From positions 1-38,428 of the forward strand of contig JBDGUI010000016.1 of NCBI GenBank assembly GCA_042216015.1: DNA of 38,428 nucleotides. The letters run 5' to 3'. The position numbers and the translations under genes were made by a program. Shown here piece by piece: positions 4,180 through 21,412 of this stretch. Every line of letters starts with the position of its first letter. Position 1 is the stretch's first letter. Origin of the DNA: Halodesulfurarchaeum sp. GTDB lineage: Archaea > Halobacteriota > Halobacteria > Halobacteriales > Halobacteriaceae. A model generated the notes under the pieces. It was not told the DNA's origin, did not search any database, and worked only from the letters and a program-made list of their open reading frames with translations.

Positions 4180-4233
4180 GTGGCGCCGATAACGATTCGG
4201 CCTGTAGCACTCTCCAGCAGCTGCTGATCGAAG

Positions 4234-4244
4234 AAAAAAAAAAA
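4234..4244 (-). terminator. Oligo-T archaeal terminator
   Basis: A11 on + (T11 on -) ~20 nt after the stop of 4266..5345, between convergent genes. Confidence 0.6.
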
Positions 4245-4265
4245 GAACGGAAGTCCGCGGCTCGC

Positions 4266-5345
4266 TTACTGTTTGATGACCGTGAACTGGTCGGCGGCAG
4301 CGCCGACGATCTTCCGGTCCGCCTCGTCCACACCGGCGATGTCGATCTCCCACGCGTAGGTCCCGGTGGGCAGGGTCTCGGGCTCGGTGAGCGTGCCCTC
4401 CCAGTGCGGGGCGGTGTGAGCATCGCCGATACCGGAGATCCACTCAAGCTCCACGGAGTCGAACTTGTCGGTATTCGGGAACTTCACGGTGATCGATTCG
4501 ACCGTCGTGCTGGAAATCTTCTGCGCGGAGGCGTCGTCTTCGGGCACCGTGGTCCCGGAGGTCGTCGTGCCCTCGGGGGCCGGCGCGCCGACGATCTTCC
4601 CGGTTTCGGTCTCGTAGACCTGGACGTAGAAGGTGACGTCCATGGACGGGAGGAACTCGCGCTCGGGCGCACACGTCCCGACGAATCCCTTCGTGCCCTC
4701 CGGCGCCGGGTGACCGTTCCAGTAGGTCTCCGTCGAGACGTAGAAGTCCGGCATCGTGTCCTCCACGATGGAGAACGTGCCGGTGCTGACGCCGACGGTC
4801 GTGAAGTTGGCGTCGTCGCCCCCGGTGATTTCGATCGTGTAGGAGTGCTCGCCCATCTTTATGTCGTCCGGGATCTCCCAGACGGCCTCCCAGATCGGGG
4901 CGGCGTGTTCACCGGACCCGCCCTGCCACGGGGCGTCCACGGTCGGACCGCCCTCGATGTTCACCGACACCGAGTCCAGGGTGTCCGCGCCCAGGACCTC
5001 GCCGCTGGCGGGGTCGTAAATTTTGATGTTCCACAACGCCTTCATTTCGGTCGTGAACGACCGGGTCGGCGCACAGTCGTCGGTGAAGCCCGAACCGAAC
5101 GAACCGGTCGCCGCCATCTCGTCGGTCACGACCAGGTTCTCCGGCTGGGCCGCCGGCGTGGTCGTCTCCGGAGCCGAAGTGGTCGTGGTCGGTTCGGTCT
5201 GCCCGCTACATCCCGCGAGGCTCGCAGTCGCCCAAACCGCCGCCCCTGCTGCCATCAGGTTCCGCCGCGAGACGGACCCACTTTGATCGTCGTCATCAGT
5301 GTGGCTGTCGATGCCTGTATCCCCAAGCCGAGTTTTCCGACTCAT
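4266..5345 (-). CDS. Tat-exported lipoprotein with two tandem Cys/His beta-domains, function unknown
   Basis: SRRNLM Tat motif, SLAGC lipobox, two repeats beginning CAPxRxF. Confidence 0.85.
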   Translation of the reverse strand: MSRKTRLGDTGIDSHTDDDDQSGSVSRRNLMAAGAAVWATASLAGCSGQTEPTTTTSAPETTTPAAQPENLVVTDEMAATGSFGSGFTDDCAPTRSFTTEMKALWNIKIYDPASGEVLGADTLDSVSVNIEGGPTVDAPWQGGSGEHAAPIWEAVWEIPDDIKMGEHSYTIEITGGDDANFTTVGVSTGTFSIVEDTMPDFYVSTETYWNGHPAPEGTKGFVGTCAPEREFLPSMDVTFYVQVYETETGKIVGAPAPEGTTTSGTTVPEDDASAQKISSTTVESITVKFPNTDKFDSVELEWISGIGDAHTAPHWEGTLTEPETLPTGTYAWEIDIAGVDEADRKIVGAAADQFTVIKQ

Positions 5346-5373
5346 CTCATCCGAAGAGAACGGGAGGACACCC

Positions 5374-5380
5374 TTAAAAA
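5374..5380 (-). promoter_or_regulatory. Putative TATA box
   Basis: TTTTTAA on the minus strand ~30 nt upstream of ATG 5345 (leaderless-type spacing). Confidence 0.5.
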
Positions 5381-5708
5381 TTCACCGCGGTTCCCGGCCG
5401 CTGAGAAATGTGGGTCTCGGCACGCTCTGCGTGACCTGAAGCCACGAATTGGCGTCAGAATATCTGTGACATACGTAAACGAAGCCCTCACGATACGACC
5501 CCTTTATCCGATCCTTCGGCACCGAGCGGAATCGACCTCGGCTGCGAGCGAAGTGTGACTGACACAATCACGCCCCGGTGGCGGAAATCGTTCAGCGACG
5601 ACCGGCAACTGGACGGATCCCCGGCTCGTGGCCCTGAACGGACACGTTTGGACCGTAAGTGGTGGGAAATTCGAACGCCTTTTCCGGGGTCCCCGCCTTT
5701 CATCGGAC

Positions 5709-6230
5709 ATGGCGAACGAGGCCAGTGAGACCCCAGTGGATGAAGACGGCGCCGGCGAATCCGGGGCCGACAACAAGCGCCATCTCGAGTTCTCGGACGC
5801 CGTCGAGATTCCGGCCCCGAAGACTGAGCTCTGGGACACCATTTCTGATCCGGCGACCCTAACCGAATGTGTCCCCGGGGCGGAGTCGATCGAGCGCGTC
5901 TCGGAGCGCAAGTACACCCTCGAGATCACCCGCGGCGTCAGTCACCTCTCCCTCTCGCTGTCTGGGGAGGCGGAATTCGTCGAGATGAACGCCCCCGATT
6001 CCATCGTCACGAAGGGCAGCGCCTTCGAGAGCAAGACCGGGAGCACCTTCGAGATCCTCGCGGCGATGGAGATCAACGAAACCGACGCGGGCTGTGAACT
6101 CGTGTACACCGCGGAGGTCGAGTACTCCGGCGGGGCGGCCTCGCTGACGAACTCCCTGCTGAAGCCCGTCGTCGAACGGGACGTCGACACGTACTTCGAC
6201 AACGTCCGAGCGGCCGTTCAGGGGGACTGA
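5709..6230 (+). CDS. CoxG/SRPBCC (START-like) ligand-binding protein
   Basis: IPAPKTELWDTISDPATLTECVPGAESI N-terminal motif typical of CoxG; C-terminal helix. Confidence 0.8.
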   Translation: MANEASETPVDEDGAGESGADNKRHLEFSDAVEIPAPKTELWDTISDPATLTECVPGAESIERVSERKYTLEITRGVSHLSLSLSGEAEFVEMNAPDSIVTKGSAFESKTGSTFEILAAMEINETDAGCELVYTAEVEYSGGAASLTNSLLKPVVERDVDTYFDNVRAAVQGD

Positions 6231-6248
6231 CTCCTCGATTTCCGTTCC

Positions 6249-7088
6249 TCACTGCCAGTTGACGAGGACCTCCTCGAGCTTGTGGACCGCCCCGAAAATC
6301 AGCAGTTCGGTCGCCGAAACCGTGAAAATTCCCGCGAACATGGCGGGGGTTTCGAGGCTGCTGTTGTACTGGAGGATGAGGGCGCCGATCCCGGACTTTC
6401 CGAGGAGGAATTCGCCGACGATCGCCCCGGTGAACGCGAGGATGATGCAGATCTTGAGCGCCGCGAACACCGAGGGCAATGAGCCATAGAGGTAGACGTG
6501 GCGGAACACCTCCCGGCGGTTGGCGGAGAAACTCTGCATCATTTCGACCAGTTCGACGTCCGTCGATTTGAACCCCGAGAGCGTGTTGACCACCATCGGG
6601 AAGAAACTGATCAGGAAGCTGATGACGACGATGGAGTTGAACCCGAACCCGAACCAGATCAGGAACACGGGCAGGAGGGTGACGACGGGGATCGACCGGA
6701 TGACGATGATGTAGGGGTAGAAGGTCTTCTCGATCGTGGCGGAGTAGGCCATCGACAGCGCGAGCAGGTAGCCGGTCACGACGGTGGCCGAAAAGCCGAT
6801 CGAGAACTCCACCAGGGTCACCCGCATCGCCGAGAAGATGTGCACGTACTCCTCGAGGAAGGCCAGGAAGATCGCGGAGGGGGTCGGCAGCAGGTAGCTC
6901 TCGATGCCGAACGCGGGAATGAGAAACTCCCAGGCCACCAGGATCGCCACGGAGGCAGCGGTCGGCAACAAGACGTCCCGCGGTTCGACGTTCTCCGGCA
7001 ACAGCGAGACGAGGGGCGCGAGCCGATCGGGCAGCGACAGCAATCCCGAATCGGTGCCGGTCCGGATCGTTCGATTGGGGCGACTCAT
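6249..7088 (-). CDS. ABC transporter permease, NitT/TauT/SsuC family
   Basis: LLPTPSAI, IPVVTLLPVFLIWFGFG, FFPMVVNT, AIVGEF motifs; ~6 TM helices. Confidence 0.92.
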   Translation of the reverse strand: MSRPNRTIRTGTDSGLLSLPDRLAPLVSLLPENVEPRDVLLPTAASVAILVAWEFLIPAFGIESYLLPTPSAIFLAFLEEYVHIFSAMRVTLVEFSIGFSATVVTGYLLALSMAYSATIEKTFYPYIIVIRSIPVVTLLPVFLIWFGFGFNSIVVISFLISFFPMVVNTLSGFKSTDVELVEMMQSFSANRREVFRHVYLYGSLPSVFAALKICIILAFTGAIVGEFLLGKSGIGALILQYNSSLETPAMFAGIFTVSATELLIFGAVHKLEEVLVNWQ

Positions 7089-7228
7089 TGGTTGCTCACC
7101 CGTACTGTCGGGATCCGCTTATCCCCATCTTTAACATATGCCTTTCTTTAAGTGGGGTCCTGAGGCTGCAGACGCTGTCCCACTGCGAGCGATACTGTGG
7201 TCGCATTCGTCAGTCGACGGTCCCTCGG

Positions 7229-7999
7229 TCAGGAGAGACCCAACTGCTCGCGGAGGTACTGCTTGGTCTGGGAGAAGGTGTCGGTCCGTTCGACGTCCAA
7301 CCGCCGGTTCCACCGGGGTCGCTCGATGTCGATCGCGACCTCGGCGTCGATTCTGGCCGGCTTTTCGGACATCACGAGGACCCGGTCGGCGAGGTAGATC
7401 GCCTCGTCGATGTCGTGGGTGACGAAGAGGACCGTCTTCTTCTGGTTGGTCCAGAGCTCGAGGAGATCGGACTGGAGGACGTCTTTGGTCTGGGCGTCCA
7501 GGGAGCCGAACGGTTCGTCCATCAGCAGGATTTGGGGATCGACCGCGAGCGCGCGAGCCAGCCCCACCCGTTGTTTCATGCCACCGGAGAGCTCGGCCGG
7601 GTAGCTCTCCGCGAAGTCCGCGAGCCCCACCTGGTCAAGCCACTCGAGGGCGATCTCGCGCCGTTTTGCTTTCGTCATATCCTCCTGGACTTTCAGCCCG
7701 ACGGCTACGTTCTCCAGCACGGTTTTCCAGGGGAGCAACTGGAAGTTCTGGAACACCATCGCGATGTTGGGGTCCGGGCCGGTGATGCGGGAGCCGTTCA
7801 CCTCGAGGAACCCGGTCGAGGGCTCCGTGATCCCGGCGATCATCTTGAGCAACGTCGTCTTCCCACAGCCAGAGGGCCCGACGATGACCACGAACTCCTC
7901 CTCCTCGATGGCGAAGGAGAGGTCCTCGAACACCGACAGCTGCTCGCCCTTCTTCTGGTGCCGCTTCGAGACGCCCTGCACCTCGATTGCTCGGTTCAT
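7229..7999 (-). CDS. ABC transporter ATP-binding protein, NitT/TauT family
   Basis: Walker A GPSGCGKT, signature LSGGMKQR, Walker B LLMDEPF, H-loop VTHD; start taken at MNRAIEV. Confidence 0.93.
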
Positions 8000-8348
8000 C
8001 GGATGGGACTCGGGAGTGTCGTCGGTCCGATCGGCTCGCCTCGGTCGGGGGCGGTCCTCGCTGCCGTCATCGTCCGGACGGTGTCGAGATGGGGTTCCAG
8101 GGGCGGTCCACCGTCGAACGCAGGGAGTGACAAGAACAGAATCCGGGGCCGGCAAAGTGAGGATGGCCTGCAGCCTTCATGGCCGGTTCGAGGGGTTCAC
8201 GCTCCCTATGGTTTCGCGTGAAAATGTGAATCCTTTAAACCCGTCTCCCCGATTCGCGGCCCGCCGTTGGACCGAAGATCGGCGGGTCAGGGATCCCCGT
8301 TCCTCGACGGAACGAAGCTTTCAAGCGACCTCCGTCGGTGAGTTCGGT

Positions 8349-9359
8349 ATGACCGTCTCGCTGTCACTCGGCTGCAAAGCCTACCCGTGGATCGAGCCGC
8401 TGATCGACGGCGACGTCTCCCCGACAGCCATCGATCTCTCCGTCCTTCCGGGCCACGTGAGCCCGGTGTACTTCGACAGGTTGCTCAGAAGCGAGGAGAT
8501 CGACGTCGCGGAACTGTCCCTGGGCTCGTATCTCGCCGCGACGGAGATCGAGGAGGACTTTCAGGTGTCGGCGATTCCGGTGTTCCCACATCGGCGGTTC
8601 CGACCCGGGTTCGTCTACGTCCAGGCAGACTCGGACATCGAGACGCCGGCCGATCTGAACGGCGCGACCGTCGGCATGCCGAACTGGCAGTTCGCCGCCG
8701 GCCTCTGGGCCAAGGGGATCCTCGCCGAGCATCACGGTCTGGACCTCCGGTCCGTCGAATGGGTCACCTCTGGCCGGGAAATCGTGCCCCTCTCGCTCTC
8801 CGCGGACTTCGACGTGGCGGACGTGTCGATGAGGTACGACGCCCCGCTCGAAGCCGGTGGAACGGGCGCCCTCAAGACGCTCCAACTGCTGATCGAGGAC
8901 GGGACGATCGACGCCGTCATCACGCCCACGGAGTACCGAAGCGACGGGGTCGAACGACTCTTTTCGAACCCCTACGAACGGGAGCGGTCGTACTTCGAAG
9001 AGACCGGCGTCTTCCCGATCATGCACATGATCGCGATCCGGGACGACGTGCTGGCCGACCACCCCTGGATCGCGAACGAGCTGTACGACGCCTTCCGCGA
9101 AGCGATGGAGCAAACGGTCGCCGAGTACACGGAACAGGGCTGGTTCAAGCGATCCCCGCTGGTCTGGAGCCTGGCGGCCATCGAGTCACAGCTCGAGGCC
9201 TTCGACGGCAACCCCTGGGAGTACGGGCTGACGGAGTACAACCGACGGACCCTCGAGACCGGGATCCGGTATGCCGCCGAGCAGGACATCATCGGGGCGC
9301 CGATGCCCGTCGAGGAGCTGTTCATTTCCGGTGTCGGTCAGAACCCCTTCCTGGAGTGA
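8349..9359 (+). CDS. 4,5-dihydroxyphthalate decarboxylase-like protein (periplasmic-binding fold, no signal peptide)
   Basis: DVAELSLGSY, IPVFPHRRFR, YFEETGVFPIMH and NPWEYG motifs of the Pht5/OphC-like family. Confidence 0.75.
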   Translation: MTVSLSLGCKAYPWIEPLIDGDVSPTAIDLSVLPGHVSPVYFDRLLRSEEIDVAELSLGSYLAATEIEEDFQVSAIPVFPHRRFRPGFVYVQADSDIETPADLNGATVGMPNWQFAAGLWAKGILAEHHGLDLRSVEWVTSGREIVPLSLSADFDVADVSMRYDAPLEAGGTGALKTLQLLIEDGTIDAVITPTEYRSDGVERLFSNPYERERSYFEETGVFPIMHMIAIRDDVLADHPWIANELYDAFREAMEQTVAEYTEQGWFKRSPLVWSLAAIESQLEAFDGNPWEYGLTEYNRRTLETGIRYAAEQDIIGAPMPVEELFISGVGQNPFLE

Positions 9360-9490
9360 TCGGTCGATCCCCTCACAGTCACACAGTGACCGGCTGCCGC
9401 CATCGGTGTAGCAGCGACCCGACCGGGGGAATCCTGGCGAATTCCCGTCCGTATGCCAATTCCTATTATGCCCCGTGTCGAATCGGCGGT

Positions 9491-10054
9491 ATGGATCACC
9501 GAATCCTCGTCGGGGTCACCGGGGCGACGGGCCAAGTCTTCGGCATTACGGCGCTGGAACTCCTCGAGGAGCGCTCCGACGTCGAGACTCACTTGGTGCT
9601 CTCGGATGCAGCGGCCCGAAACATCGATCAGGAGGACGAGCGCTCCGTCGCCGCAGTCAGGGACCTCGCGGACCACGTCTACGACAACGGAAACATCGGT
9701 GCGGCGATCGCCTCGGGGTCGTTCCCGGCCACCGGCATGCTCGTGGCCCCCTGTTCGATGAACTCCCTCTCCAAGATTGCTCACGGGACGGCGGACAACC
9801 TGCTCCTCCGGGCGGCGGCTGTCACGCTCAAGGAACGCCGAAATCTGGTGGTGATGCCGATGGAGAAGCCGTTCTCCCGCATCGGCCTAGAGAACATGCT
9901 CGCCGTCACCGACGCGGGCGGCGTGATCATACCACCGTTGCTCTCTTACTACACCGAGGGGCGATCCCTCGACGCGATGACCCGGCGAACTGTTGCCCGC
10001 GCGCTCTCTCAGACTGGCCTCGAGATGGAGTACGAAGCGTGGGAGGGGCAGTAA
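9491..10054 (+). CDS. ubiX: Flavin prenyltransferase UbiX
   Basis: ILVGVTGATG, IASGSF, VAPCSMNSL, NLLLRAAAVTLKERR motifs. Confidence 0.93.
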   Translation: MDHRILVGVTGATGQVFGITALELLEERSDVETHLVLSDAAARNIDQEDERSVAAVRDLADHVYDNGNIGAAIASGSFPATGMLVAPCSMNSLSKIAHGTADNLLLRAAAVTLKERRNLVVMPMEKPFSRIGLENMLAVTDAGGVIIPPLLSYYTEGRSLDAMTRRTVARALSQTGLEMEYEAWEGQ

Positions 10055-10061
10055 TCGAGCG

Positions 10062-10592
10062 ATGGAGCGCTCAGCGTCACGAACCGACACGAAGGGGACG
10101 GGACCGACGGAATCCGGGGACCAGAAGGCGTTGGTCGTGTACTACTCCCGGACCGGCACGACCGAAAGCGTGGCGGAGAAGATCGCCAATCAGCTTCCGG
10201 ATCCGGACGTCGCTCGAATCCGGCCGCGTCGAGAACGTCGGTATCTCTCCTGGCTGGTCCGCTCGGCGATCCCCGGCTCGACGGTGGCGATTCACCCGGT
10301 TTCGGCCGATCTCTCCGCGTACGACGCGGTGTTCCTTGGGTCCCCGAAGTGGACCCTCTCGTGTCCGCCGGTCAACGCGTATCTCGAGGACGCCGACCTA
10401 CAGGGGAAGACCGTCGGACTCTTCGTGACCTATGGCGGCTTCGACGAGGAACGCTTCACGCGCTCGCTCGCGGACCGGCTCCGATCACGGGGCTGTGCGG
10501 TCCCGGCCACGCTGCTCGTCAAGCGCGATCGGGCGAACGGGGACCACCTCGAGGACAGAGTGAACCGGTTCGTCCGTGAGGTTCTGGGGTAA
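10062..10592 (+). CDS. Flavodoxin-family protein
   Basis: FMN phosphate loop YYSRTGTT, YDAVFLGSPKW, GLFVTYGG; starts 7 nt after ubiX. Confidence 0.85.
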   Translation: MERSASRTDTKGTGPTESGDQKALVVYYSRTGTTESVAEKIANQLPDPDVARIRPRRERRYLSWLVRSAIPGSTVAIHPVSADLSAYDAVFLGSPKWTLSCPPVNAYLEDADLQGKTVGLFVTYGGFDEERFTRSLADRLRSRGCAVPATLLVKRDRANGDHLEDRVNRFVREVLG

Positions 10593-10628
10593 TCCGGGGC
10601 CGCTGTCCAAAACGTCCGTCGCGGCCGC

Positions 10629-12056
10629 TCAGTTCGACGGATTCAACAGGTCGCCGAAGCGGTCGGTCAACTCGGCCTCGAGGTCCTCGCCGATCTTCGT
10701 GTCCGCCGGGAACTCGTCCTTCCAGTGGTAGGGCTTGGTGGCGTCGATGACGGCTCTGGTGTTCGTCAGGTCACCCTCTGCCTTCTGCTCGGGGTGCAAG
10801 GTCGGGTTGAGCGGTGAACTCACACAATCGGTGACGATCTGGATGTCCTCCTCCGGTTCGGATCGACTCACCATCGCCCACAGCACCTGGTTGACGTCGT
10901 GGGCGTCGATGTCCTCGTCGACAAGCACGGTGTAGCGACCCTCCCAGACGCCGGCGGGGAGCGAGATGGCCTGCATCCCGACCTGCGTGCTGTGGCCGGC
11001 GTACTGCTGTTCCATGGAGATCACCTGGAACCAGACTCCGGGGAGCATCGTGTTCACCTGATCGATGCCCGTGACCCCGACCCGCTCGAGCTGACTCCAG
11101 AGCTGCCCCGAGGCCCGCGTGTTCGACATCGCGGCGGCGGCGATCGCGACGTTGTTGAAGCCCAGGACGATCGGTTCGTCCCGGTAATACACGCGCTCGA
11201 CCACGAACGGAGCGAGCTCCCGAGGCCCCTTCCCGTAGTAGCCGGTCCACTCCGCGAACGGTCCCTCGACGACCGGCTCCCGGTCCGGGTAGACTTGGCC
11301 CTCGAAGACGAGCTCCGATCGGGCGGGAATCGGGAGGTCCGTGACCTCGCCCTCGATGACCTCCAGGGGCTGGTCCCGCTTCGCGCTCACGTACTCCAGC
11401 TCGTTGATGCCGGAGGGGACCCGCTCGTTCGCCGCCATGAACAGGTCGGGCTGGTGGCCCACCGAGACGGCCGCGGGGAACGGCTCGTCGTTCTCGAAGT
11501 ACGACCGTTGATTGCGTTTGCCGTCACGGCCCGTGTCGATGCTGATCGTGGCCGTGCGCGGCCCGTGCACCTGCACCCGGTACGTCCCGGCGTTGATCTC
11601 GCCGGTGTCGGCGTGTCTGGTCACCACCAGGTCGCCGGTCCCGATGTATCGACCGCCGTCGTGCTCGTGCCAGCGTGGAGCGGGGAACCTGGCGATGTCG
11701 ACGGCCTCGTCGCGGTCGACGTTCTCCGTCACCGGCCCCGAGTCGACCGTGTCGACGGGTCGGGTCTCCGAGACCGACGCCCGCTCCTTCTGGGCGCGGA
11801 TCGCCGTCTCGATGTCGTTTACGGGCTCCTCGCCGAGCGCGAGCAGGACCTGAAGCGGGGTGTCGAGCGCGTTGGTCAGGATCTTCGCACCCGGTTCGAC
11901 TCTGTCGAACCCTTCGAAGAGGAGGCCCGTCCCGAGGCCCCTCCGCCGGGCGAGCTTGGAGATCCCACCCACCTCGAGGTCGAGGTCGGCCCCCGTTACC
12001 CGCTCGAGTTGATCCTCCGCCTCGAGGCCGTCGATGAACTCCCTGAGATCCCTCAT
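10629..12056 (-). CDS. ubiD: UbiD-family prFMN-dependent (de)carboxylase
   Basis: DLREFI N-terminus, GGRYIGT, NAGTYRVQ, EGPFAEWTGYY (catalytic R..E..E), VDEDID, VLWAM, VIDATKP. Confidence 0.93.
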   Translation of the reverse strand: MRDLREFIDGLEAEDQLERVTGADLDLEVGGISKLARRRGLGTGLLFEGFDRVEPGAKILTNALDTPLQVLLALGEEPVNDIETAIRAQKERASVSETRPVDTVDSGPVTENVDRDEAVDIARFPAPRWHEHDGGRYIGTGDLVVTRHADTGEINAGTYRVQVHGPRTATISIDTGRDGKRNQRSYFENDEPFPAAVSVGHQPDLFMAANERVPSGINELEYVSAKRDQPLEVIEGEVTDLPIPARSELVFEGQVYPDREPVVEGPFAEWTGYYGKGPRELAPFVVERVYYRDEPIVLGFNNVAIAAAAMSNTRASGQLWSQLERVGVTGIDQVNTMLPGVWFQVISMEQQYAGHSTQVGMQAISLPAGVWEGRYTVLVDEDIDAHDVNQVLWAMVSRSEPEEDIQIVTDCVSSPLNPTLHPEQKAEGDLTNTRAVIDATKPYHWKDEFPADTKIGEDLEAELTDRFGDLLNPSN

Positions 12057-12059
12057 CCG

Positions 12060-13268
12060 CTAGATGTATGTGGGACTGACGTCGTACTGTTCGAGCTGAT
12101 CGTACAGCGCCGAGGCCGTTTCCACCGCGAGTTCGTGGTGTCCCTCGATGTACTCGTTGGTGCAAATTTCCTCGGCGTCGGGCTTGGACTCGAGCAGTCC
12201 GGCCTGGTGGAACGTCTCGATGGTCGAATCCATCCGATCCATCGGGATCCACCCCTTGCCGTGCTTGTTTCCGACCGCCTTCGGCGGGGTGTAGGCGGAG
12301 AACATCGGCCCGGTGAGCGCGTCGTGGTACTCGGCGTTCCACTTCCGGGAGGATTCGGCTTTCACGATTTCCCGATGCGCGGCCGTCACCTCCTCGTAAT
12401 CGGTGGCCCACTTCTTGACGCCGTCGAGCCATCCCGCCACGATCCGGCTCACCTGATCGGGATGCTCCTCGATGAACTCCTCGTGGGCCAGCAGTCCGTT
12501 CCCCATGTGTCCGAGAACCGCAACCGAGCGCAACGCCCCGGCCTCGATGCCCTTCTGTTCGAACATCGCGAGCTCCTGGGGCACGTATCGGATCATCGCG
12601 TCGATCTGGCCGTCGAGCTGGATCTTCCGCGCGGAGCCCGGCTGGACGTTCTGGAACTCGATCGTGGAGAGGTCGACACCTTTCTCCCGCATCGCCGCCT
12701 TGGCGACTGGGCCGGAACTCCCCCACGGCCACTGGCCGATCGTCTTCCCCTCGAGGTCGGACCAGGTCTCGATGCCGGTTTCCTTCAGGTACACGACACC
12801 GCCGAACGGGCCCATGTAATTGCCGATGATCTTGATGGGTGCACCCTTCTCGATGAGCGGGATCGCTGCGCCCAGTTCCGCTTGGCCCACTGGAGCGTCC
12901 TTGACCGAGATTGCCTTCGCTGCAGCCTGTGACCCCTCGGATTCCTTCACCGTCACGTCGAGGTTGTACGCCGGCCAGGTCCACTGCTCCGCGGCGGTCA
13001 GCGGGGCGAAGGTGCCCGTGTCGTTTCGGTACCACTGCATCTGGAAGTCCAGGGATGCGGGCTCCATCCTCGTCTGCTGCCCCCCCGAGGTCGTCGTTCC
13101 CGCACCGGCGGAGCCGCCGGAACACCCGGCAAGCGCCGTCGTCACGCCGGCGCCGGCCAGCGCGAGGAACCCGCGACGGGAAGCGACACGCCCAACCTGA
13201 CGGTCGCCGGTCCGTGACTTTTCTCCCGACTGATCGGTCCGTGCTTCGGTTTCGGTGGCCGAGTCCAT
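12060..13268 (-). CDS. Tat lipoprotein ABC substrate-binding protein, NMT1/SsuA/THI5 type
   Basis: SRRGFL Tat motif, LAGC lipobox, GIETWSDLEGKTIG, GQIDA; 3 nt upstream of ubiD. Confidence 0.88.
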   Translation of the reverse strand: MDSATETEARTDQSGEKSRTGDRQVGRVASRRGFLALAGAGVTTALAGCSGGSAGAGTTTSGGQQTRMEPASLDFQMQWYRNDTGTFAPLTAAEQWTWPAYNLDVTVKESEGSQAAAKAISVKDAPVGQAELGAAIPLIEKGAPIKIIGNYMGPFGGVVYLKETGIETWSDLEGKTIGQWPWGSSGPVAKAAMREKGVDLSTIEFQNVQPGSARKIQLDGQIDAMIRYVPQELAMFEQKGIEAGALRSVAVLGHMGNGLLAHEEFIEEHPDQVSRIVAGWLDGVKKWATDYEEVTAAHREIVKAESSRKWNAEYHDALTGPMFSAYTPPKAVGNKHGKGWIPMDRMDSTIETFHQAGLLESKPDAEEICTNEYIEGHHELAVETASALYDQLEQYDVSPTYI

Positions 13269-13470
13269 GGATCATGTGCAGCCCGAAAACCACATACCTT
13301 TCATCCGAACATATGGTCCGCTTTATATCCCACTATGTGACGGACACACGCCCCATACCGGCCGGACACGCCGGATTCGGGACCGACCATCGGGTCAGTG
13401 CTGCCAGGGGTGATTATCAGAAGGCAGTAGCGCTCAAAGCGTTTATCCCCGTGTACTGATAGTAGCGTGT

Positions 13471-14094
13471 ATGGAGCAAGCAGCGGACGAGGGAACCACG
13501 ACGGAGCAAACGGACCTCATCGAGGTCTGGCTGGCGGTGGAACCCGCCCCCTCGATGGGTTGTACCTGTGTCGATCGGGAGACCTGGTCGGTGAAGCAAT
13601 CCGTCTCGATGGGGCCCGACGGGATGGAGGCGTGCAAGCTCCTCCTCGACAACAGCCAGGACAGTTCGCCCACGTACGTGCGTTCCGAACCCGACGGTGT
13701 GTGTCCGCGGGCCGTCCTCGAGCGATGTAACTGCATTCCCTCCCTTGAGCGGATCGCGGACGGCAAGCTCTATTACTCGGTCACCATCCCGCATCGGACG
13801 ATTCTCGCCGAGATCGTCGACGGCATCCGGGAGACGGGCGCGACCGTTTCGGTGACCAGCGTTCGCTCCCACAAGGACACCGACCTGGAGACCCCGCTTC
13901 TGACCGAGAAACAGCGGGAGGCCTTCGACACCGCGGTCAGTCTGGGCTACTACGACCGCCCACGGGAGGCGTCCCTCGATGAGATCGCCTCGGAGCTCGG
14001 GATCTCCCGTTCCGCGGTCTCACACCGCCTCTGTGCGGTCCGGCGGCGACTCGCCGATCATTTCGCCGAACAGATCGGCGCGAACGTCGACTGA
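13471..14094 (+). CDS. Bat/HTH-10 transcriptional regulator with Cys-rich N-terminus (DmsR-like)
   Basis: LTEKQREAFDTAVSLGYYDRPREASLDEIASELGISRSAVSHRL HTH-10; N-terminal GCTC, ACK, VCP, RCNC. Confidence 0.82.
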   Translation: MEQAADEGTTTEQTDLIEVWLAVEPAPSMGCTCVDRETWSVKQSVSMGPDGMEACKLLLDNSQDSSPTYVRSEPDGVCPRAVLERCNCIPSLERIADGKLYYSVTIPHRTILAEIVDGIRETGATVSVTSVRSHKDTDLETPLLTEKQREAFDTAVSLGYYDRPREASLDEIASELGISRSAVSHRLCAVRRRLADHFAEQIGANVD

Positions 14095-14296
14095 CCTCGG
14101 TTCGGAACGCGCTCGCCGCCCGGTCGTCGGACGGACTCTGACAGGCTTAAGGCCCCGCTGCTCCTATCCCCGCCATCGAAATGTCAATCGCTGCCCCGCT
14201 CGCTGCCACGGCACGCCCGCCCGTCCAGGTGAGGCTGCCTGACCGGATTCGGGAGACAGTCGATCGCTGTGGACCCAGTCAGGGGGACAGCTGCCG

Positions 14297-15760
14297 ATGA
14301 CGGACCCGAACGTACTGCTGATCGTCCTCGATGGGGTTCGGGCCAGGAACACCTCACTCCACGGGCACGAAAACGAGACCACGCCGGCGCTCGAACGGTT
14401 CGCGGAGCGGGCCACCACCTTCACGCAGGCCCGGTCGCCGGGCATCTGGAGCCTCCCGAGCCACGCCAGTATCTTCTCGGGCCTCGAGGTGGTCGAACAC
14501 GGCGTCACCGATCTCGGGGAGCGGTTGAAACCTGGGAGTACGATCTGGGACGAGTTGGGGGACCGCGGCTACGCGACGGGGCTGTTCACCGAAAACACGT
14601 GGCTCGCGAGCATGGACGTCGGGCTCAACGACCCCTTCGAGACGGTCGAGGGGGCCCAGAACTTCCCGTTTCCGGAAGCCGGGGACCCGAACTTGCCGTA
14701 TCACCGGTTCGCGTCGCGGTCAGGACTCGAACGGTACACGGCGTGGCTCCGGGAGAGCCTCGGGGATTCACATCCCGGGAAGGCCTTCGTCAACGGGCTG
14801 GCAACGAAACTCGCCTGGGATCATCCGTGGCTCCTGCCCGAGTCCTGGGGGGCCGCGGACACGCCTGGGGCCGTCTACACGGACCTGTTCCTCGAGTGGA
14901 GCGAGCAGCAGTCCGGGCCGTGGGCGGCGTGTCTCAACTACCTCGACGCTCACTTCCCCTACCTGCCGCCGACCGATCACGACCAGTGGGGCGGATCCCG
15001 GATCCGTCAGTTGCAGTCCGAGATGGACGATCAGGTCTGGGAGTTCAACGGGGGGACTCGACCCTGGTGGCAACGACGGGCCCTCGCGAGTCTCTACGAC
15101 GGCGGCATCCATTACATGGACGCGGAGGTCGACCGACTGCTGACGGCCCTCGAGGACCGTGGGGAACTCGAGGACACGCTCGTCGTCGTGACCGCCGATC
15201 ACGGTGAGGGGTTCGGCGAGCCGTCCAGAATCAGGCCTGACATGCGGATCCCGGCGCATCTCTCCGGACTGCACGAGGTCCTCCTCCACGTTCCACTCCT
15301 GGTCAAAGGGCCCGGACAGACGGCGGGGACGGTCTCCGACGACCTCGTGTCACTCACCGATTTCCCGACCGTCGTCAGGGACGCGGTGGACGGCGAACAG
15401 GATCCCGCCGAGGCGTTCCGAACGGAGGGACCGGTCATCGCTTCCTCCCACGGGTTGGAGAAACCGATGGAGGAGCGCGCCGGAAACCACGTCACCGACA
15501 CGTGGCGATTCAACGGCGACGCCGTCGCCGTCTACGAGGAGCTGGGGGAGACCGTCCGGAAATCGATGACCTGGCGGGAGGACTACGAGGCCGAGATAAC
15601 CGTCGTCGACGCTCAGACCTCCTGGCGATCCGGGTCGGGGGGACGAAAGCGGGTGCAGGAAGTCATGGCGGGCCTGGCCGATCCCGACGTGACGACGAGC
15701 GGCTCAGAGGCGGTCAGCGAGGAGGCCCAAAAGCGACTCGAGCGACTCGGCTACAGGTAA
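14297..15760 (+). CDS. Sulfatase-like hydrolase (alkaline phosphatase superfamily)
   Basis: PNVLLIVLDGVR, WSLPSHASIFSG, DAHFPY, TADHGE, LHVPL, RLERLGY. Confidence 0.9.
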   Translation: MTDPNVLLIVLDGVRARNTSLHGHENETTPALERFAERATTFTQARSPGIWSLPSHASIFSGLEVVEHGVTDLGERLKPGSTIWDELGDRGYATGLFTENTWLASMDVGLNDPFETVEGAQNFPFPEAGDPNLPYHRFASRSGLERYTAWLRESLGDSHPGKAFVNGLATKLAWDHPWLLPESWGAADTPGAVYTDLFLEWSEQQSGPWAACLNYLDAHFPYLPPTDHDQWGGSRIRQLQSEMDDQVWEFNGGTRPWWQRRALASLYDGGIHYMDAEVDRLLTALEDRGELEDTLVVVTADHGEGFGEPSRIRPDMRIPAHLSGLHEVLLHVPLLVKGPGQTAGTVSDDLVSLTDFPTVVRDAVDGEQDPAEAFRTEGPVIASSHGLEKPMEERAGNHVTDTWRFNGDAVAVYEELGETVRKSMTWREDYEAEITVVDAQTSWRSGSGGRKRVQEVMAGLADPDVTTSGSEAVSEEAQKRLERLGYR

Positions 15761-15830
15761 TTTTCGCGCTCGTCGAAAACCGCGAAGTCGCGAGAAGAGG
15801 TGTTTCTCGACTGTTACTGGTCGCGTCCGC

Positions 15831-17279
15831 CTACTCGACGACTTCGAACGCGAAGTGATGGGCCGGCAGCGGGCGGACGGGGTGGTTGTCGAGATACGAC
15901 AGGTGGGGTTTGCACTCGAAGTCCGGTTCGTCGTCGCCCTGCTCGAAGATCGCGGGGTACACGTCGATGAAGTGCCAGCCCGGTTCGTACGGGGCCGTTA
16001 GCTTCGTCCTGATCACGCCAGGCTCGTCGTCGGAGGTGTTCCCACACACGTACCCGAGCACCTTGTTGTCCACGACGAAGAAGATCGTGTTCTCATAGAG
16101 CGTCCACCCGACGGCGTGGATCTCGACCTCGAACTCCTCGCCCGGGGCCACCTGGGTGGGAGTGATGTTGATCGCCTGGGGCTGGAGCATGAACCCGCTG
16201 ACTGTGACGGACTTCCCGCCGATTTCGGCGGTGATCGCCCGTGTCGCACCGCGGTCGATCGGCGCCTCGAACTCGACCTGGAACTCCCCGTTCTCGTCGG
16301 ATTCGACGGTCGGGAGGACGTCCCGCCGCGGGGCGGGCGTGATAGCCGACCCCTCGATGCGCTTGCCCTCGTGGGTGTACCACACCAGGTCCACCGTCTC
16401 GTTCGGCGGGAAGTGCCGACCCTTGATGAACCCGCTCGTGCCCGGCGGGCCACACGACGGGGTGACCTCCAGGGTCGCATCGGTCTGCTCGTCGATGTCG
16501 GGATAGTGGGCCGGGAGCGGCTCCTCGTTGAGGAGGGGATCGGACCAGGCGGTTTCGGGCGGATTCTCCGGCTCCGTCACCTCCACCGTCCACTTCGATT
16601 GCCGATCGTCGCCCACCGGGCCATACGGCGACTGGGTCTCTGTCTGGAGGAACGGCCAGCCACGGTAGCTCCGCCAGATGCGGAGTTCGTGTTTGCCCGG
16701 CGGGCCGACCGCCCGGACTCGAGCGGTCGCCGTGCCGCGGTTCATCACGCCGGTCATGAAGCCCACCGCCGCGTTGTCCCACGCGACCTGGTAGTTGTTC
16801 ATGACCGGGTTCGGGCCGATACCGTACCCACGCACGGTGAAGAAGTCACCGAGCTCGGCTTCGGTCTCCTCGATCTCGAAGAACTGTCTGATCTCTATCT
16901 CGGTCTGTGCGACCGTGGAGCCGGACTGGTCCTCGAGGGCGATCGTGTGACTGCCGCCGTAATCGGTCGGGATCTCGAAGCGCTCGTCGAAGGTCCCGTC
17001 GGCGTCCGTGGTGACCGACGTGATGTCGATGTTGCGGGGCGAGTACTGCGGGCCGATGATCCGGTTCGATTGGAGGACACCCCAGTCACCGTCCACGGTG
17101 TGCCAATTGACGTCGAAGGTCGTGTCAGCGGGGAGGTTTCGTCCGCGGATCGTCACCGTGTCGCCGACGTACCCCCGATCCTCGTCGAGCATGACCGTTC
17201 CGGAGCCGGTCCCGTCCGAATCGCGGTGCCGGTCCAGGGACTCCGCGATGTCGGCCGATAAATTCGTATCTGATCCCAT
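15831..17279 (-). CDS. Uncharacterised beta-sandwich (Ig-like) repeat protein, copy 2
   Basis: Start MGSDTN at 17279; aligns along its length with 2758..4179 and ends KPHLSYLDNHPVRPLP. Confidence 0.8.
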   Translation of the reverse strand: MGSDTNLSADIAESLDRHRDSDGTGSGTVMLDEDRGYVGDTVTIRGRNLPADTTFDVNWHTVDGDWGVLQSNRIIGPQYSPRNIDITSVTTDADGTFDERFEIPTDYGGSHTIALEDQSGSTVAQTEIEIRQFFEIEETEAELGDFFTVRGYGIGPNPVMNNYQVAWDNAAVGFMTGVMNRGTATARVRAVGPPGKHELRIWRSYRGWPFLQTETQSPYGPVGDDRQSKWTVEVTEPENPPETAWSDPLLNEEPLPAHYPDIDEQTDATLEVTPSCGPPGTSGFIKGRHFPPNETVDLVWYTHEGKRIEGSAITPAPRRDVLPTVESDENGEFQVEFEAPIDRGATRAITAEIGGKSVTVSGFMLQPQAINITPTQVAPGEEFEVEIHAVGWTLYENTIFFVVDNKVLGYVCGNTSDDEPGVIRTKLTAPYEPGWHFIDVYPAIFEQGDDEPDFECKPHLSYLDNHPVRPLPAHHFAFEVVE

Positions 17280-17443
17280 GGCGCCCTCTACGCAACTCCG
17301 ATTACATCTATCCCCGGTGAGCATATCTCGGGATTTATAATGGATCGTGCCGTGCTCACAAGCCACTTGTCCGGGCCGCCAGCGCGCCTGGTGGCACCTG
17401 ATAACGAATCGCACACTCTCCCACGTTCTTGAATTCACAACCG

Positions 17444-17450
17444 TTTTTAT
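17444..17450 (+). promoter_or_regulatory. Putative TATA box for the U32 pair
   Basis: TTTTTAT ~26-32 nt upstream of ATG 17476. Confidence 0.5.
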
Positions 17451-17475
17451 CGTTGACCAAATCGAACCTGGGTCT

Positions 17476-18447
17476 ATGCTGAATATTTTTACCCCGATCA
17501 AATCACTCGAGGGCGCCGAGGAGCTGATCCAACTGGGCGCCGACGAGCTCTACTGCGGGGTGAATCCCGAGGAGTGGGCCGAGCGGTACGAGAACGTGAA
17601 AACGCCCAACCGGAGACCGAACGATCACTCGCAGGTCGAGGATCTCGAGGAACTCGCGGAGATAGCCACACTCTGCCACGAAACGGACGTAAAGCTGTAC
17701 CTCACGCTCAATGATCACTTCTACTCGGACGATCAGGCGACGTTGCTGCGAGAGTTGGTCGAGGAACTTTCCACCTGGGAGGGAATAACGGGCTACATCG
17801 TGGCCGACGTCCACTTCATGACGGAACTGCGCAACGTGGTTGGCGACGACGAGATCCTCGTCAGCACGGGCGCAACCACGTTCAACGGCCACACCGCCGC
17901 GTTTCTGGAGTCCCTCGGCGCGGACGGGATTCACCTCCCGCGGCATCTCACACTCGACGAGATCGAGACGATCGCTCGAACGGCCCCCGACAGCCTCGAC
18001 CTCTATGCGTTCGCGCTGAATTCGAACTGTCTGCTCATCGACGGCCACTGCACGCTGCTCCACAACGCGCCGATCGAGCACGAGGAGTCGTTCAAGGAGC
18101 CCTGCATGCAGACCTACACGCAACGCCTCGCCGACGGCGGCGAGGAACGAACGATCCGGGACGAGACACGGCTGTTCAACGATCCCCACAGGACGGAGCA
18201 GGCGTGTGGCGTCTGCTCGCTGTACCGGTTCGACCAGATCGGCCTCTCCGGGGTCAAGATGGTCGGCCGCAGATTCCCCGTCAGCCGGAAGAAAGCGGAC
18301 CTGGAGGTGCTGGACCACGCCCGACGGAAAACCAGCGAGGCCGATACCGAAGCCGAATTCAGGGACATGCTTCAGGAGACCGTCACCGACCGCGGGATGG
18401 AGTGTTCGATCGACGCCTGCTACTATCCGACGGTGATGGACCGATGA
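17476..18447 (+). CDS. U32-family Fe-S protein, UbiU-like
   Basis: GADELYCG, IVAD, HLPRHLTLDEI, C-x6-C-x17-C...CGVC, GVKMVGR. Confidence 0.85.
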   Translation: MLNIFTPIKSLEGAEELIQLGADELYCGVNPEEWAERYENVKTPNRRPNDHSQVEDLEELAEIATLCHETDVKLYLTLNDHFYSDDQATLLRELVEELSTWEGITGYIVADVHFMTELRNVVGDDEILVSTGATTFNGHTAAFLESLGADGIHLPRHLTLDEIETIARTAPDSLDLYAFALNSNCLLIDGHCTLLHNAPIEHEESFKEPCMQTYTQRLADGGEERTIRDETRLFNDPHRTEQACGVCSLYRFDQIGLSGVKMVGRRFPVSRKKADLEVLDHARRKTSEADTEAEFRDMLQETVTDRGMECSIDACYYPTVMDR

Positions 18448-19238
18448 GCGTGGAAACCGCCGTCTTCACGGACGACGTCTCGACGCTTGCGGCCCTCGAG
18501 GAGGACTACGATCGGGTCTATTTCGGCAACGAGTTTTGCGACAAGCGCCTCCCGGACCCAGAGGCGGTGACCGACGCCTACGACTACTGCACGGAGCAGG
18601 GCCTCGACATGACGCTGGTCTCCCCGATCATGACGCCGATGAAGACGTCGGCGGTCGAGTCGATCCTCGAAGCCGTCGAACCCTTCACGTCGGATCTAGA
18701 GCTCGTGTTCAACGACTGGGGGGTGTACCAGCTGGCCACCGAATTCGGCGACTTCGAGGACCTCGTCGCCGGCCGAACCATGAGCGGCCAGAAACGCGCG
18801 CCCGAGGTGTCCCACCTGACTGGGGACACGGACATCACGCTGGAGGACGGTGGCGCGGTCGTGACCGACGGTGTGAGAGAGCACTTCAAGAAGTCGATCG
18901 TCAACGTCCCGTATGCGAGGGATCACCTCGAGGACCTGGGCGTCGGCCGGATCGAACTCGACGTCCTGAGCCACGACATGTACGACGAGGACGTCCAGTT
19001 CAGCACGTCCATTTACTACCCGTGGAACTTCGTGACCGTGAAGCGCTGGTGTCAGGAGTCGACGTCTGCGCCACTCTGTGACGAAAACTGCGCCGACGTC
19101 GTCTTTTCCCTCGACAACCAACCCGTGACGCCCGAACGGCTGTACAGGATGAACAACGCGATCTTCACCTACAACGAGGACGTCCCCGACCTGTCCTACG
19201 TCGACAGGGAAGTGTTCATCCCCGATCCCGTGAACTGA
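18444..19238 (+). CDS. U32-family Fe-S partner protein, UbiV-like
   Basis: RVYFGNEFCDKR (cf. UbiV VYLGE.VCSKR), VFNDWG, RIELD, C-x8-C-x3-C; ATGA overlap with the upstream gene. Confidence 0.78.
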   Translation: MSVETAVFTDDVSTLAALEEDYDRVYFGNEFCDKRLPDPEAVTDAYDYCTEQGLDMTLVSPIMTPMKTSAVESILEAVEPFTSDLELVFNDWGVYQLATEFGDFEDLVAGRTMSGQKRAPEVSHLTGDTDITLEDGGAVVTDGVREHFKKSIVNVPYARDHLEDLGVGRIELDVLSHDMYDEDVQFSTSIYYPWNFVTVKRWCQESTSAPLCDENCADVVFSLDNQPVTPERLYRMNNAIFTYNEDVPDLSYVDREVFIPDPVN

Positions 19239-19411
19239 CGGCGGTCGACGGGAGCAAATCGGCGCCGTTCGGTTCGGGCTTCGCGGTCGAGTCTCTCAGT
19301 GTGAGCAACGTCGACGAGTTCACCGGGAGAACCCAGGTCGGTGGTGCTCACGCAGCACCACCCCGGATTGCACCGCTCCTGATGCTATGGGATCTGAACC
19401 GAAGGAATCTA

Positions 19412-19562
19412 CGCCCGGCGCGGGATTTGAACCCGACGCAAACGCTCGCACAGCTCGCGTTTGCTTGTTTCAAATCCCGCTGGTTGTTCACGACCGCGTT
19501 CACGCGTTTCGCGACACAGACGAGCTGGTCGCTCAACGGCGTGAGAAAGCGAGAAGCGCCCG
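19412..19562. repeat. tRNA-Asp-derived repeat: 3'-end copy, nested palindrome and copy of the tRNA downstream flank
   Basis: 19412-19435 matches 21313-21336 at 23/24 nt; inverted arms 19420-31/19469-80 and 19438-45/19457-64; 19489-19562 resembles 21246-21318. Confidence 0.85.
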
Positions 19563-19920
19563 TGGACCCGATGGTCACGGTGACCACGACCGGATCATAC
19601 ACCGGGGCGTCCTGAATGAGATAGTAGAGCATTGCCCCGGCAGCGACTCAGGCGAAGACCAGAAACCCCATCCCGACCCAGGAGCCCAGCCTGAGCATCT
19701 CCTCGGCGTCAAATTCCCGATAATGGAACCACATCCCCTCACCCAGCAGGAGGAGGGCAATGACTGCCGGGAAGAGGACCCCGAGGAGAATCTGGCTGAT
19801 GGACATGCTCTTTTCTCCGAGGACGTGCCAGGCCTGTACCAGGAGGGAAACGAGGGCCACACCGAACACCAGCCCGAGCCCGGCGGCGTATCGTCGTCCG
19901 GGCGATGACCACCTTCGCAT
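19556..19920 (-). pseudogene. Truncated membrane sensor region of a histidine-kinase-like gene
   Basis: TM helices similar to the N-terminus of 20095..21159; in-frame TGA at 19648-50 with hydrophobic coding continuing (VAAGAMLYYL...) until the repeat. Confidence 0.6.
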
Positions 19921-20094
19921 CGATTCGTTGTGATGTGCTAACTGAGACCGTATAAAGATCGACGTTTTTTTCGCTCTTTTTCGCTCGATTGGCACCTCGA
20001 TGGACCCCTTCGAGTGGCAGAAACCGGTCTCACCGTCCTCCAAGAACCATTCAGGGGAGAAAAACTAACACATGATCGGCCGTCTGCCCCGACG

Positions 20095-21385: not shown

Positions 21386-21412
21386 TGCATCCCTCGGTAA
21401 CTGGGTGATGAG

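Follow-up and report, generated by a model that had tools for sequence, protein, structure and literature searches.

A UbiD/UbiX decarboxylase module and a UbiU/UbiV-like U32 gene pair in a probable mosaic accessory locus of a Halodesulfurarchaeum

Gene content of the locus

The window, that is, the whole stretch of DNA analysed here, is the complete contig C16 (38.4 kb) of genome G000 from Halodesulfurarchaeum sp. The locus in question (5709–19238) carries genes for a UbiD-family (de)carboxylase dependent on prenylated flavin mononucleotide (prFMN), the prFMN synthase UbiX, an ATP-binding cassette (ABC) importer, and an adjacent pair of U32-type proteins, referred to as U32a and U32b. An earlier sequence-only reading of this DNA had proposed that the decarboxylase and the U32 pair act together in the O2-independent modification of an imported aromatic acid. 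Genes were picked by GC3 (third-codon-position GC) frame bias and then scanned against Pfam and NCBIfam, and the start codons were checked by script. Every gene listed in that reading (UbiD, UbiX, a second decarboxylase-like gene, flavodoxin, an SRPBCC protein, the importer, a regulator, a sulfatase, and the U32 pair) was found at the locus; the gene of a TIG-domain protein at 15831–17279 had been left out. The analyses described below incline us, with limited confidence, to regard the region as a mosaic accessory locus, in which a decarboxylase module and a separately inserted U32 cassette occupy an importer scaffold.

The UbiD-family gene lies at 10629–12056 on the minus strand. The UbiD_N, UbiD, and UbiD_C domains of its product all scored above their cut-offs and together cover the full length (PF20695, 32.2 bits; PF01977, 183 bits; PF20696, 77.9 bits). 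The best solved relative in a PDB sequence search was 7pda (E 3.4e-82, 280 bits, residues 2–468 aligned), described as the phenazine-1-carboxylate decarboxylase PhdA (PMC10850782), and the next relatives were BsdC/VdcC (7ae4, E 1.2e-40), HudA, HmfF, TtnD, Fdc1, E. coli UbiD, and AroY. The Glu in GPFaEWTGY and the Arg in GTYR align with Glu269 and Arg159 of PhdA (with an offset of 6 in the chain numbering), the catalytic Glu and conserved Arg being named in the same paper. The protein passed no NCBIfam model; its scores were 231.6 bits with phenylphosphate carboxylase beta (cut-off 469), 224.5 bits with VdcC (cut-off 650), 153 bits with the futalosine-pathway decarboxylase (cut-off 496), and 112.1 bits with NF008175 (cut-off 788), the equivalog of the E. 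coli-type UbiD, 4-hydroxy-3-polyprenylbenzoate decarboxylase.

Three further genes of the module are encoded on the plus strand. UbiX, a flavin prenyltransferase (9491–10054), scored above the cut-offs of NF004685 (209.9 bits, cut-off 188) and TIGR00421 (184.9 bits, cut-off 108.9), and reached 214.5 bits with VdcB (cut-off 290). The flavodoxin gene (10062–10592; PF12682, 48.2 bits) begins with an ATG at 10062, 7 nt downstream of UbiX. The second decarboxylase-like gene of the sequence-only reading (8349–9359) was borne out by a PDB match: the sole one obtained for its product was the 4,5-dihydroxyphthalate decarboxylase PhtD (9jp7, E 1.2e-40, 143 bits, residues 4–325 of 336), and the protein carries no signal peptide. 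Both proteins are cytoplasmic with a periplasmic-binding-protein (PBP) fold and match over ~320 residues; the setting differs from that of PhtD in that no aerobic-phthalate dioxygenase gene was present among the Pfam-scanned window genes. As with PhdA and its UbiX partner PhdB, a UbiX gene occurs in the same locus as UbiD and the catalytic Glu and Arg are kept, whereas the similarity is at the family level only and the neighbours of the window UbiD include the ABC importer, the flavodoxin, and the PhtD-like decarboxylase. The likeness to VdcBCD/BsdBCD and to phenylphosphate carboxylase is of a similar kind, with UbiD and UbiX matching VdcC, carboxylase beta, and VdcB at scores that are all below the curated cut-offs. 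The family assignments in this module are secure. Judged by titles and abstracts, the literature search found nothing on haloarchaea that connects UbiD/UbiX with aromatic compounds.

The genome carries a second UbiD (6673–7977, minus strand) and a second UbiX (~4503–5018, minus strand) on contig C20 (L004), where they adjoin genes of the large and small AcnX subunits and an MVD-like gene (3392–7977). We take this set to be archaeal mevalonate pathway genes; such a set is unusual for Halobacteria. A UbiD paralogue that is 25–32% identical to the window UbiD occurs in 10 of the 11 same-genus genomes and in 1 of 13 other genomes of the family. The presence of the second UbiD and UbiX on C20 therefore marks the window pair as a dedicated extra pair.

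The importer is of the NitT/TauT type and consists of a permease (6249–7088, minus strand; PF00528, 91.3 bits), an ATPase (7229–7999, minus strand, ATG at 7999; PF00005, 120.3 bits), and a substrate-binding lipoprotein (SBP; 12060–13268, minus strand) of the NMT1/SsuA-like kind (PF09084, 80.6 bits). The N-terminus of the SBP shows a twin-arginine signal followed by a lipobox Cys, as in lipoproteins of the twin-arginine translocation (Tat) route, and this exported SBP identifies the transporter as an importer, in agreement with the sequence-only reading. The top NCBIfam matches of the permease were SaoP, SsuC, and TauC, each below its cut-off, the SBP reached 73 bits with SsuA_fam, also below the cut-off, and none of the importer genes passed a substrate-specific NCBIfam equivalog model. 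The gap between the SBP and UbiD genes is 3 nt with the start codons checked, and the two genes are predicted to be co-transcribed. A CoxG/SRPBCC ligand-binding protein is encoded next to the permease gene (5709–6230, plus strand, ATG at 5709; PF06240, 76.8 bits).

The rest of the locus comprises a Cys-rich HTH_10 regulator (13471–14094, plus strand; PF04967, 59.7 bits; 7 Cys) with a weak DmsR_N match of 20.2 bits, below the cut-off, a cytoplasmic sulfatase-like hydrolase (14297–15760, plus strand; PF00884, 116.7 bits), the 482-aa TIG/Ig-like repeat protein "IgB" (15831–17279, minus strand), and the U32 pair. IgB gave only weak TIG/Big_6 matches, and its nearest Atlas cluster is named "IPT/TIG domain protein". 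A paralogue of IgB is encoded at 2743–4179 on the plus strand; the two copies lie in inverted orientation and flank most of the locus, and neither matched a Pfam family above the cut-off. Three divergent arrangements are seen: the ATPase and permease genes are divergent from the PhtD-like, UbiX, and flavodoxin genes, the SBP and UbiD genes from the regulator and sulfatase genes, and the TIG gene from U32a–U32b. The UbiD genes and the U32 pair are 5.4 kb apart, and both belong to one accessory region that is missing from the 40 relatives sampled.

The G000 assembly comprises 1.68 Mb in 51 contigs, with a GC content of ~64% and a completeness of 86.6%. Downstream of the locus are tRNA-Asp and then the rpoB''/B'/A'/A'' operon, and the region is therefore chromosomal. 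An Rfam search of the window at the gathering threshold found nothing besides tRNA-Asp. Only two sequencing runs matched the window DNA; both hold DNA of a salt-lake metagenome, possibly its source, and no RNA run was among the matches. The genome encodes haem-copper oxidase subunit I, and the organism is therefore not a strict anaerobe.

Sequence and fold of the U32 pair

U32a (17476–18447, plus strand) matched PF01136 with 69 bits (cut-off 22.4). Among NCBIfam models, the UbiU equivalog NF047963 gave 42.2 bits (cut-off 440) and the second match, the TrhP model NF011996, gave 35.8 bits (cut-off 534); no RlhA model was among the matches. When a profile of 17 U32a relatives was compared with E. 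coli UbiU using hhalign, the two aligned with 98% probability (E 2e-13). Four cysteines, C185, C192, C210, and C244, are invariant in all 17 sequences and are spaced as CX6CX17CX33C. The corresponding patterns in UbiU and UbiV are CX6CX16CX38C and CXnCX12CX3C, respectively, and these cysteines are reported to bind [4Fe-4S] clusters (10.1101/587956).

U32b (18444–19238, plus strand) overlaps U32a by an ATGA, and the two genes are translationally coupled. C32 of U32b is invariant among 28 sequences, and C203, C212, and C216 are conserved in at least 90% of them, giving the pattern CXnCX8CX3C, in which the first cysteine is far upstream as in UbiV. At the level of motifs, the patterns of U32a and U32b match the [4Fe-4S]-binding patterns of UbiU and UbiV. 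These patterns and the hhalign result substantiate the UbiU/UbiV-like architecture that had been read from the sequence.

U32b matched no Pfam or NCBIfam family, and neither U32a nor U32b gave a usable match when searched against PDB sequences. U32b is assigned to the U32 group by its fold, its Cys pattern, the constancy with which it accompanies U32a, and a weak match between profiles. The AF2 model is a TIM barrel with a pLDDT of 88.3, and the top and sole Foldseek match at E ≤ 0.001 was the U32 peptidase Mk0906 (5d88, E 1.6e-4, TM 0.51–0.54). The U32b family is large: a profile search recovered 2,321 representative clusters with E ≤ 0.001, of which 1,893 had E ≤ 1e-10; none of the eight members scanned (the window U32b and seven others) matched a Pfam model.

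The window pair thus resembles UbiU–UbiV(–UbiT) in being two adjacent U32-type genes with similar Cys patterns, whereas it differs in that no UbiT was found in the genome, in the lack of a quinone context, and in a UbiU model score of 42 bits. The quick tree described below also places the haloarchaeal U32a clade far away from UbiU of E. coli. No match to the SCP2 domain of UbiT (PF02036) was found in the 86.6%-complete G000, and neither UbiA nor a methyltransferase was among the Pfam-scanned genes of 4266–23350. These results are in line with the absence of a quinone role, as the sequence-only reading had supposed.

Distribution of the decarboxylase module and the U32 pair

Two samples were compared, one of 40 relatives, 11 of which belong to the same genus, and a separate one of 400 other Halobacteria. 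In the 40 relatives, identity to the window UbiD nowhere exceeded 32%, and neither U32a nor a real U32b was found. Among the 400 Halobacteria, UbiD relatives (E ≤ 1e-40) occurred in nine, of which three were 62–63%, one was 48%, and five were 35–37% identical. U32a was found in none of the 400, including all nine with a UbiD relative. The 20-kb stretches around the nine UbiD relatives contained UbiX in seven cases, a PhtD-like gene in two, a flavodoxin in one, and U32 in none. Since the locus L129 described below also lacks U32, the count becomes 0 of 10. Four genomes (G321, G351, G208, and G108) have the UbiD module, and no U32a was found anywhere in them. At the four loci with a UbiD at least 60% identical to that of the window (L112, L113, L114, and L129), a PhtD-like gene is adjacent in three (L112, L114, and L129), UbiX is nearby in three, and U32 is present in none; a flavodoxin copy of 47% identity is near the UbiD orthologue in L112. 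The UbiD orthologue of L114 (9115–10529, G208; 63–64% identical) was matched as two pieces in different frames, which points to a frameshift or an error in sequencing; it is followed by a further PhtD-like gene and by a TIG gene.

The distribution was also examined from the side of the U32 pair. A word search of 5.8 billion proteins returned 17 U32a matches including U32a itself, 15 of them being of the haloarchaeal type and at least 54% identical. One of the matches, P0004, is 80% identical and lies on a 10.6-kb contig; another, P0012, lies on a 13-kb contig. A metagenome scan with the haloarchaeal U32a alignment found five loci, all with at most 34% identity, and the P0004 contig was not among them. 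A scan of the genome collection gave 74 loci with U32a relatives, which were retrieved with flanks of up to 10 kb. A U32b homologue was found by tblastn beside U32a in 60 of the 74 loci, any sulfatase match in three, and neither UbiD nor UbiX in a single one.

Besides G000, two haloarchaeal metagenome-assembled genomes (MAGs) are known to have the U32 pair. In the Halanaeroarchaeum MAG G424 (L030), the permease and ATPase genes (both 70% identical) are divergent from U32a (58%), U32b (55%), and the sulfatase gene (66%), which are followed by the SBP (46%) and TIG (56%) genes. The best UbiD-family match in G424 is just 26% identical, and therefore this genome has no UbiD orthologue. In the Haloarculaceae MAG G425, ten window genes recur at 34–76% identity in a near-identical order on one contig (L129), namely TIG (70%), sulfatase (71%), regulator (69%), PhtD-like (70%), SBP (52%), UbiD (76%), ATPase (64%), permease (67%), CoxG (58%), and the unknown gene g02 (34%). 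Because of this recurrence, we regard the clustering as being beyond chance. Neither UbiX nor flavodoxin is on this contig, and the U32 genes of G425 (62% and 65%) are not on it either; they are on a separate 8.1-kb contig, where the pair adjoins a Bat-like regulator with the architecture HisKA_7TM-PAS-GAF-HTH_10.

The scaffold itself is more widely distributed. Three same-genus genomes (G002, G009, and G011) have a syntenic scaffold of g02, CoxG, ABC genes, an NMT1-type SBP, TIG, and HTH_10 regulators, without the decarboxylase module and without the U32 pair. CoxG copies of 51–61% identity adjoin related ABC loci in relatives, and TIG orthologues of 49–70% identity adjoin NitT/TauT-type ABC loci in G002, G009, G011, G208, G424, and G425. 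In the syntenic left flank of G011 (L023, 2848–5091), the scaffold is immediately preceded by genes of the NrfD and 4Fe-4S ferredoxin types, which resemble those of polysulfide reductase subunits and hint at a sulfur-respiring lineage.

The functional coupling of UbiD and U32 put forward in the sequence-only reading is not supported by this comparison: it rests on G000 and one related MAG and is contradicted by most of the comparative evidence. The chemistry which that reading suggested for either module, taken by itself, is reasonable. That reading would have been refuted, on its own terms, by U32 and UbiD orthologues never co-occurring or co-localising. No shared locus was found elsewhere, while the two do co-occur in G425 on different contigs. 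Going by these gene neighbourhoods, the two modules are separable and not fully independent.

Outside the Halobacteria, U32 pairs are found in very different surroundings. The 876 open reading frames (ORFs; chosen greedily, at least 90 aa) of the 74 loci were clustered, and the cluster representatives were annotated. The distant U32 pairs, 25–35% identical to the window pair, split into two gene orders. The order a–b is found in Omnitrophota, Planctomycetota, Bathyarchaeia, and others, and its neighbours include radical-SAM genes (32 of the 74 loci), B12-radical-SAM genes (17 of 74), aminotransferase genes, and glycosyltransferase genes. The order b–a is found in Desulfobacterales, Thauera, and others. 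A quick maximum-likelihood tree of 48 rows was built from cluster members of 280–420 aa, to which the sequences of the window, of L029, and of E. coli UbiU were added. The three haloarchaeal U32a formed a fully supported clade with a long stem in the a–b half, and E. coli UbiU fell in the other half, at the end of a very long branch.

In 11 of the 74 loci, the U32 pair lies within a quinohemoprotein amine dehydrogenase (qhp) operon. In Desulfosarcina variabilis (L065, 3972–13394), U32b–U32a are inside such an operon with the order alpha, radical-SAM, gamma, beta-propeller, NapC/NirT cytochrome, U32b, U32a, ABC exporter, and subtilase; the other ten are L048, L050, L057, L058, L061, L068, L069, L071, L072, and L101. 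In aerobes, QhpG is described as dihydroxylating a Trp of the gamma subunit using O2 (PMC7876137). No flavin monooxygenase or QhpG-like gene was present among the 11 ORFs scanned at 3972–16192 of L065, and the U32 pair in these operons may be an oxygen-free substitute for QhpG. The U32 cassette seems to have been taken up in other settings too, such as qhp operons without a QhpG-like gene. The qhp pairs of these anaerobes belong to the same two-protein family, with 25–32% identity to U32a/U32b, whereas they differ from the window pair in the b–a order, in their qhp alpha/gamma, radical-SAM, ABC exporter, and subtilase neighbours, and in their place in the other half of the tree. Our literature search found no paper that joins U32 with quinohemoprotein amine dehydrogenase.

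Interpretation of the locus and rival explanations

As we picture the mosaic locus, its scaffold would be the NitT/TauT-type importer with CoxG, permease, ATPase, SBP, TIG, and HTH_10 genes, which is syntenic in relatives and lies upstream of the rpoB operon. The decarboxylase module would consist of the PhtD-like, UbiX, and flavodoxin genes on one strand, SBP–UbiD on the other, and the Cys-rich regulator. The Tat-lipoprotein SBP would bind an aromatic or heteroaromatic carboxylic acid outside the cell for import, and the PhdA-like UbiD, working in the decarboxylating direction with prFMN from the dedicated UbiX, would then decarboxylate the imported acid without oxygen. The flavodoxin may serve flavin reduction or prFMN maturation, and the PhtD-like enzyme may catalyse a second decarboxylation. 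The second module, U32a/U32b, would probably be a heterodimer resembling UbiU–UbiV, each subunit carrying one [4Fe-4S] cluster, and its family membership points to an O2-independent, prephenate-dependent hydroxylase. It would represent an uncharacterised U32 subfamily, a two-gene cassette moving between very different pathways.

Several observations weigh against this reading. On the side of the family assignments, the window UbiD narrowly missed even the broad subfamily model TIGR00148 (233.4 bits, cut-off 244.85). The fold match of U32b is tied with generic TIM barrels in the VIA comparison, where 5d88 gave Z 12.9 (198 residues, rmsd 4.0), CutC gave Z 13.1, and many TIM barrels were at about Z 11. 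The hhalign probability of U32b is a weak 54% with U32a and 4.3% with E. coli UbiV (E 0.0094, at an N-terminal YxGxxxCxKR stretch), the latter being too weak alone. On the side of separability, the U32 pair of G424 is amid 46–70% identical orthologues of the permease, ATPase, SBP, sulfatase, and TIG genes, and G425 carries both modules, on separate contigs. In addition, at an identity of at least 60%, the rare UbiD is present in two of the three U32-bearing haloarchaeal genomes as opposed to three of the 400 Halobacteria, one of those two being the discovery genome and the lineages possibly being close kin. The shared transporter, sulfatase, and TIG orthologues and the occurrence of both modules in two of three genomes leave room for a shared pathway.

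Such a shared pathway would be a single O2-independent route, catabolic or modifying, in which UbiD (with the PhtD-like enzyme) decarboxylates the imported acid and the U32 pair goes on to hydroxylate the ring of the product, mirroring the order of UbiD followed by UbiU/UbiV in anaerobic ubiquinone synthesis. We consider this account possible and rather doubtful. The 5.4-kb distance within one accessory region missing from the 40 relatives is consistent with it, as are the 76%-identical UbiD cluster and the 62–65%-identical U32 pair of G425 and the Cys-rich, weakly DmsR_N-like regulator. The divergence of the G424 U32 operon from the 70%-identical permease and ATPase genes, with the sulfatase gene following, also speaks for it, since this arrangement attaches both enzyme sets to the same transporter family. 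However, UbiD and UbiX are absent from all 74 U32 loci and U32 from the nine UbiD loci and L129. The four genomes with a UbiD module and no detectable U32a argue against it from one side, and G424, with its U32 pair and a best UbiD match of 26%, from the other. Moreover, the U32 pair of G425 is on another contig beside the Bat-like PAS-GAF-HTH_10 regulator, and the convergent sulfatase and TIG genes intervene between the UbiD genes and the U32 pair in the window. The more specific proposal, that the U32 pair is a catabolic ring hydroxylase acting on the product of UbiD and the PhtD-like decarboxylase, seems to us unlikely. If it were true, the locus would encode a route for anoxic brine in which an imported aromatic acid is first decarboxylated and then hydroxylated with oxygen from an organic donor, and the U32 hydroxylases would have their first substrate that is neither a quinone nor RNA, and the first in Archaea.

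The neighbouring sulfatase-like protein raises another, improbable explanation, in which the U32 pair hydroxylates the compound handled by the sulfatase or converts the active-site Ser of the sulfatase to formylglycine (FGly; gem-diol form) without O2. The closest solved relatives of the protein are the arylsulfatase-type 4upi and 4upl, whose FGly motif aligns with W-S-L-P-S-H; Ser takes the place of Cys and His that of Arg, and the sequence does not conform to the C/S-x-P-x-R motif. W-S-L-P-S-H is kept in all four close orthologues and, by a strict pattern, in 8 of 19 more distant loci (L132–L150). The Ser at the FGly position in the four close orthologues is compatible with such a partnership. 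So are the position of the sulfatase gene two genes from the U32 pair in the window, the single co-directional operon U32a–U32b–sulfatase of G424 (gaps of ~5 and 1–10 nt), and the distant U32 pairs in qhp operons, in which the target of hydroxylation is a residue of a protein. Four genomes, G000, G009, G424, and G425, were scanned for maturases, and the outcome also counts in favour of the partnership. The formylglycine-generating enzyme (FGE, PF03781) was found in none, and the anaerobic sulfatase-maturating enzyme (anSME, TIGR03942) scored above the cut-off only in G425. Against this, sulfatase homologues (E ≤ 1e-80) are present in 88 of the 400 other Halobacteria, all without U32a, and the U32 pair is therefore not an obligate partner. 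G009 has a 66%-identical sulfatase without the U32 pair, FGE, or anSME, the motif position at which maturases require Arg is taken by His, a sulfatase match is found in just three of the 74 U32 loci, and the pair of G425 does not adjoin a sulfatase gene. The formylglycine maturase role has been largely rejected in view of the commonness of the sulfatase without U32, the case of G009, and the His in place of Arg, and no paper joining U32, sulfatase, and formylglycine was found. The cytoplasmic sulfatase-like family is widespread in haloarchaea, with copies often in tandem with further sulfatase paralogues.

Two known U32 functions were also weighed. One possibility is that the pair is a housekeeping enzyme that hydroxylates RNA in the manner of TrhP or RlhA and has no connection with its neighbours, which would fit the description of TrhP and RlhA as U32 members acting on RNA (PMC10990095) and the rank of TrhP as the second NCBIfam match of U32a. 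We judge it very improbable in the face of the TrhP score of 35.8 bits against a cut-off of 534, a distribution that is not that of a housekeeping gene (the pair was not found in the 400 sampled Halobacteria or the 40 relatives), and the conservation of U32a/U32b as a two-gene pair. TrhP and RlhA work as single proteins. Hardly credible is a true UbiU/UbiV orthologue in anaerobic quinone synthesis, for which the similar architecture and Cys motifs and the nearby UbiD and UbiX could be cited. The scores of U32a with the UbiU equivalog (42.2 bits, cut-off 440) and of UbiD with the E. coli-type model (112 bits, cut-off 788), the very long branch of E. coli UbiU away from the haloarchaeal clade in the quick tree, the failure to find SCP2/UbiT in the 86.6%-complete G000, and the predicted co-transcription of UbiD with the importer SBP all point away from it.

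We therefore return to the mosaic locus as the explanation towards which we lean. Few U32 subfamilies have an assigned function, those named being UbiU/UbiV, TrhP, and RlhA (PMC10990095), and the UbiU/UbiV-like pair described here is from a haloarchaeon without an evident ubiquinone pathway. Members of the U32b family turn up in widely differing pathways, and their lineages are, to judge from the names, mostly anaerobic. If these pairs are hydroxylases, prephenate-type oxygen-free hydroxylation would extend beyond quinones and RNA. The UbiD, UbiX, PhtD-like, and flavodoxin genes with their own importer form a compact candidate for a new prFMN substrate in a halophile, and the module could also show how prFMN maturation proceeds when oxygen is scarce.

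A further conserved element was noted downstream of the U32 pair. Within the window stretch 19405–19612, ~150 nt (19411–19562) are 79–82% identical in the same-genus G002 and G011. ARAGORN and Rfam made no call for this stretch. Its minus strand contains the T-arm-like sequence GGATTTGAACC, and the conserved stretch may be an intron-containing tRNA.

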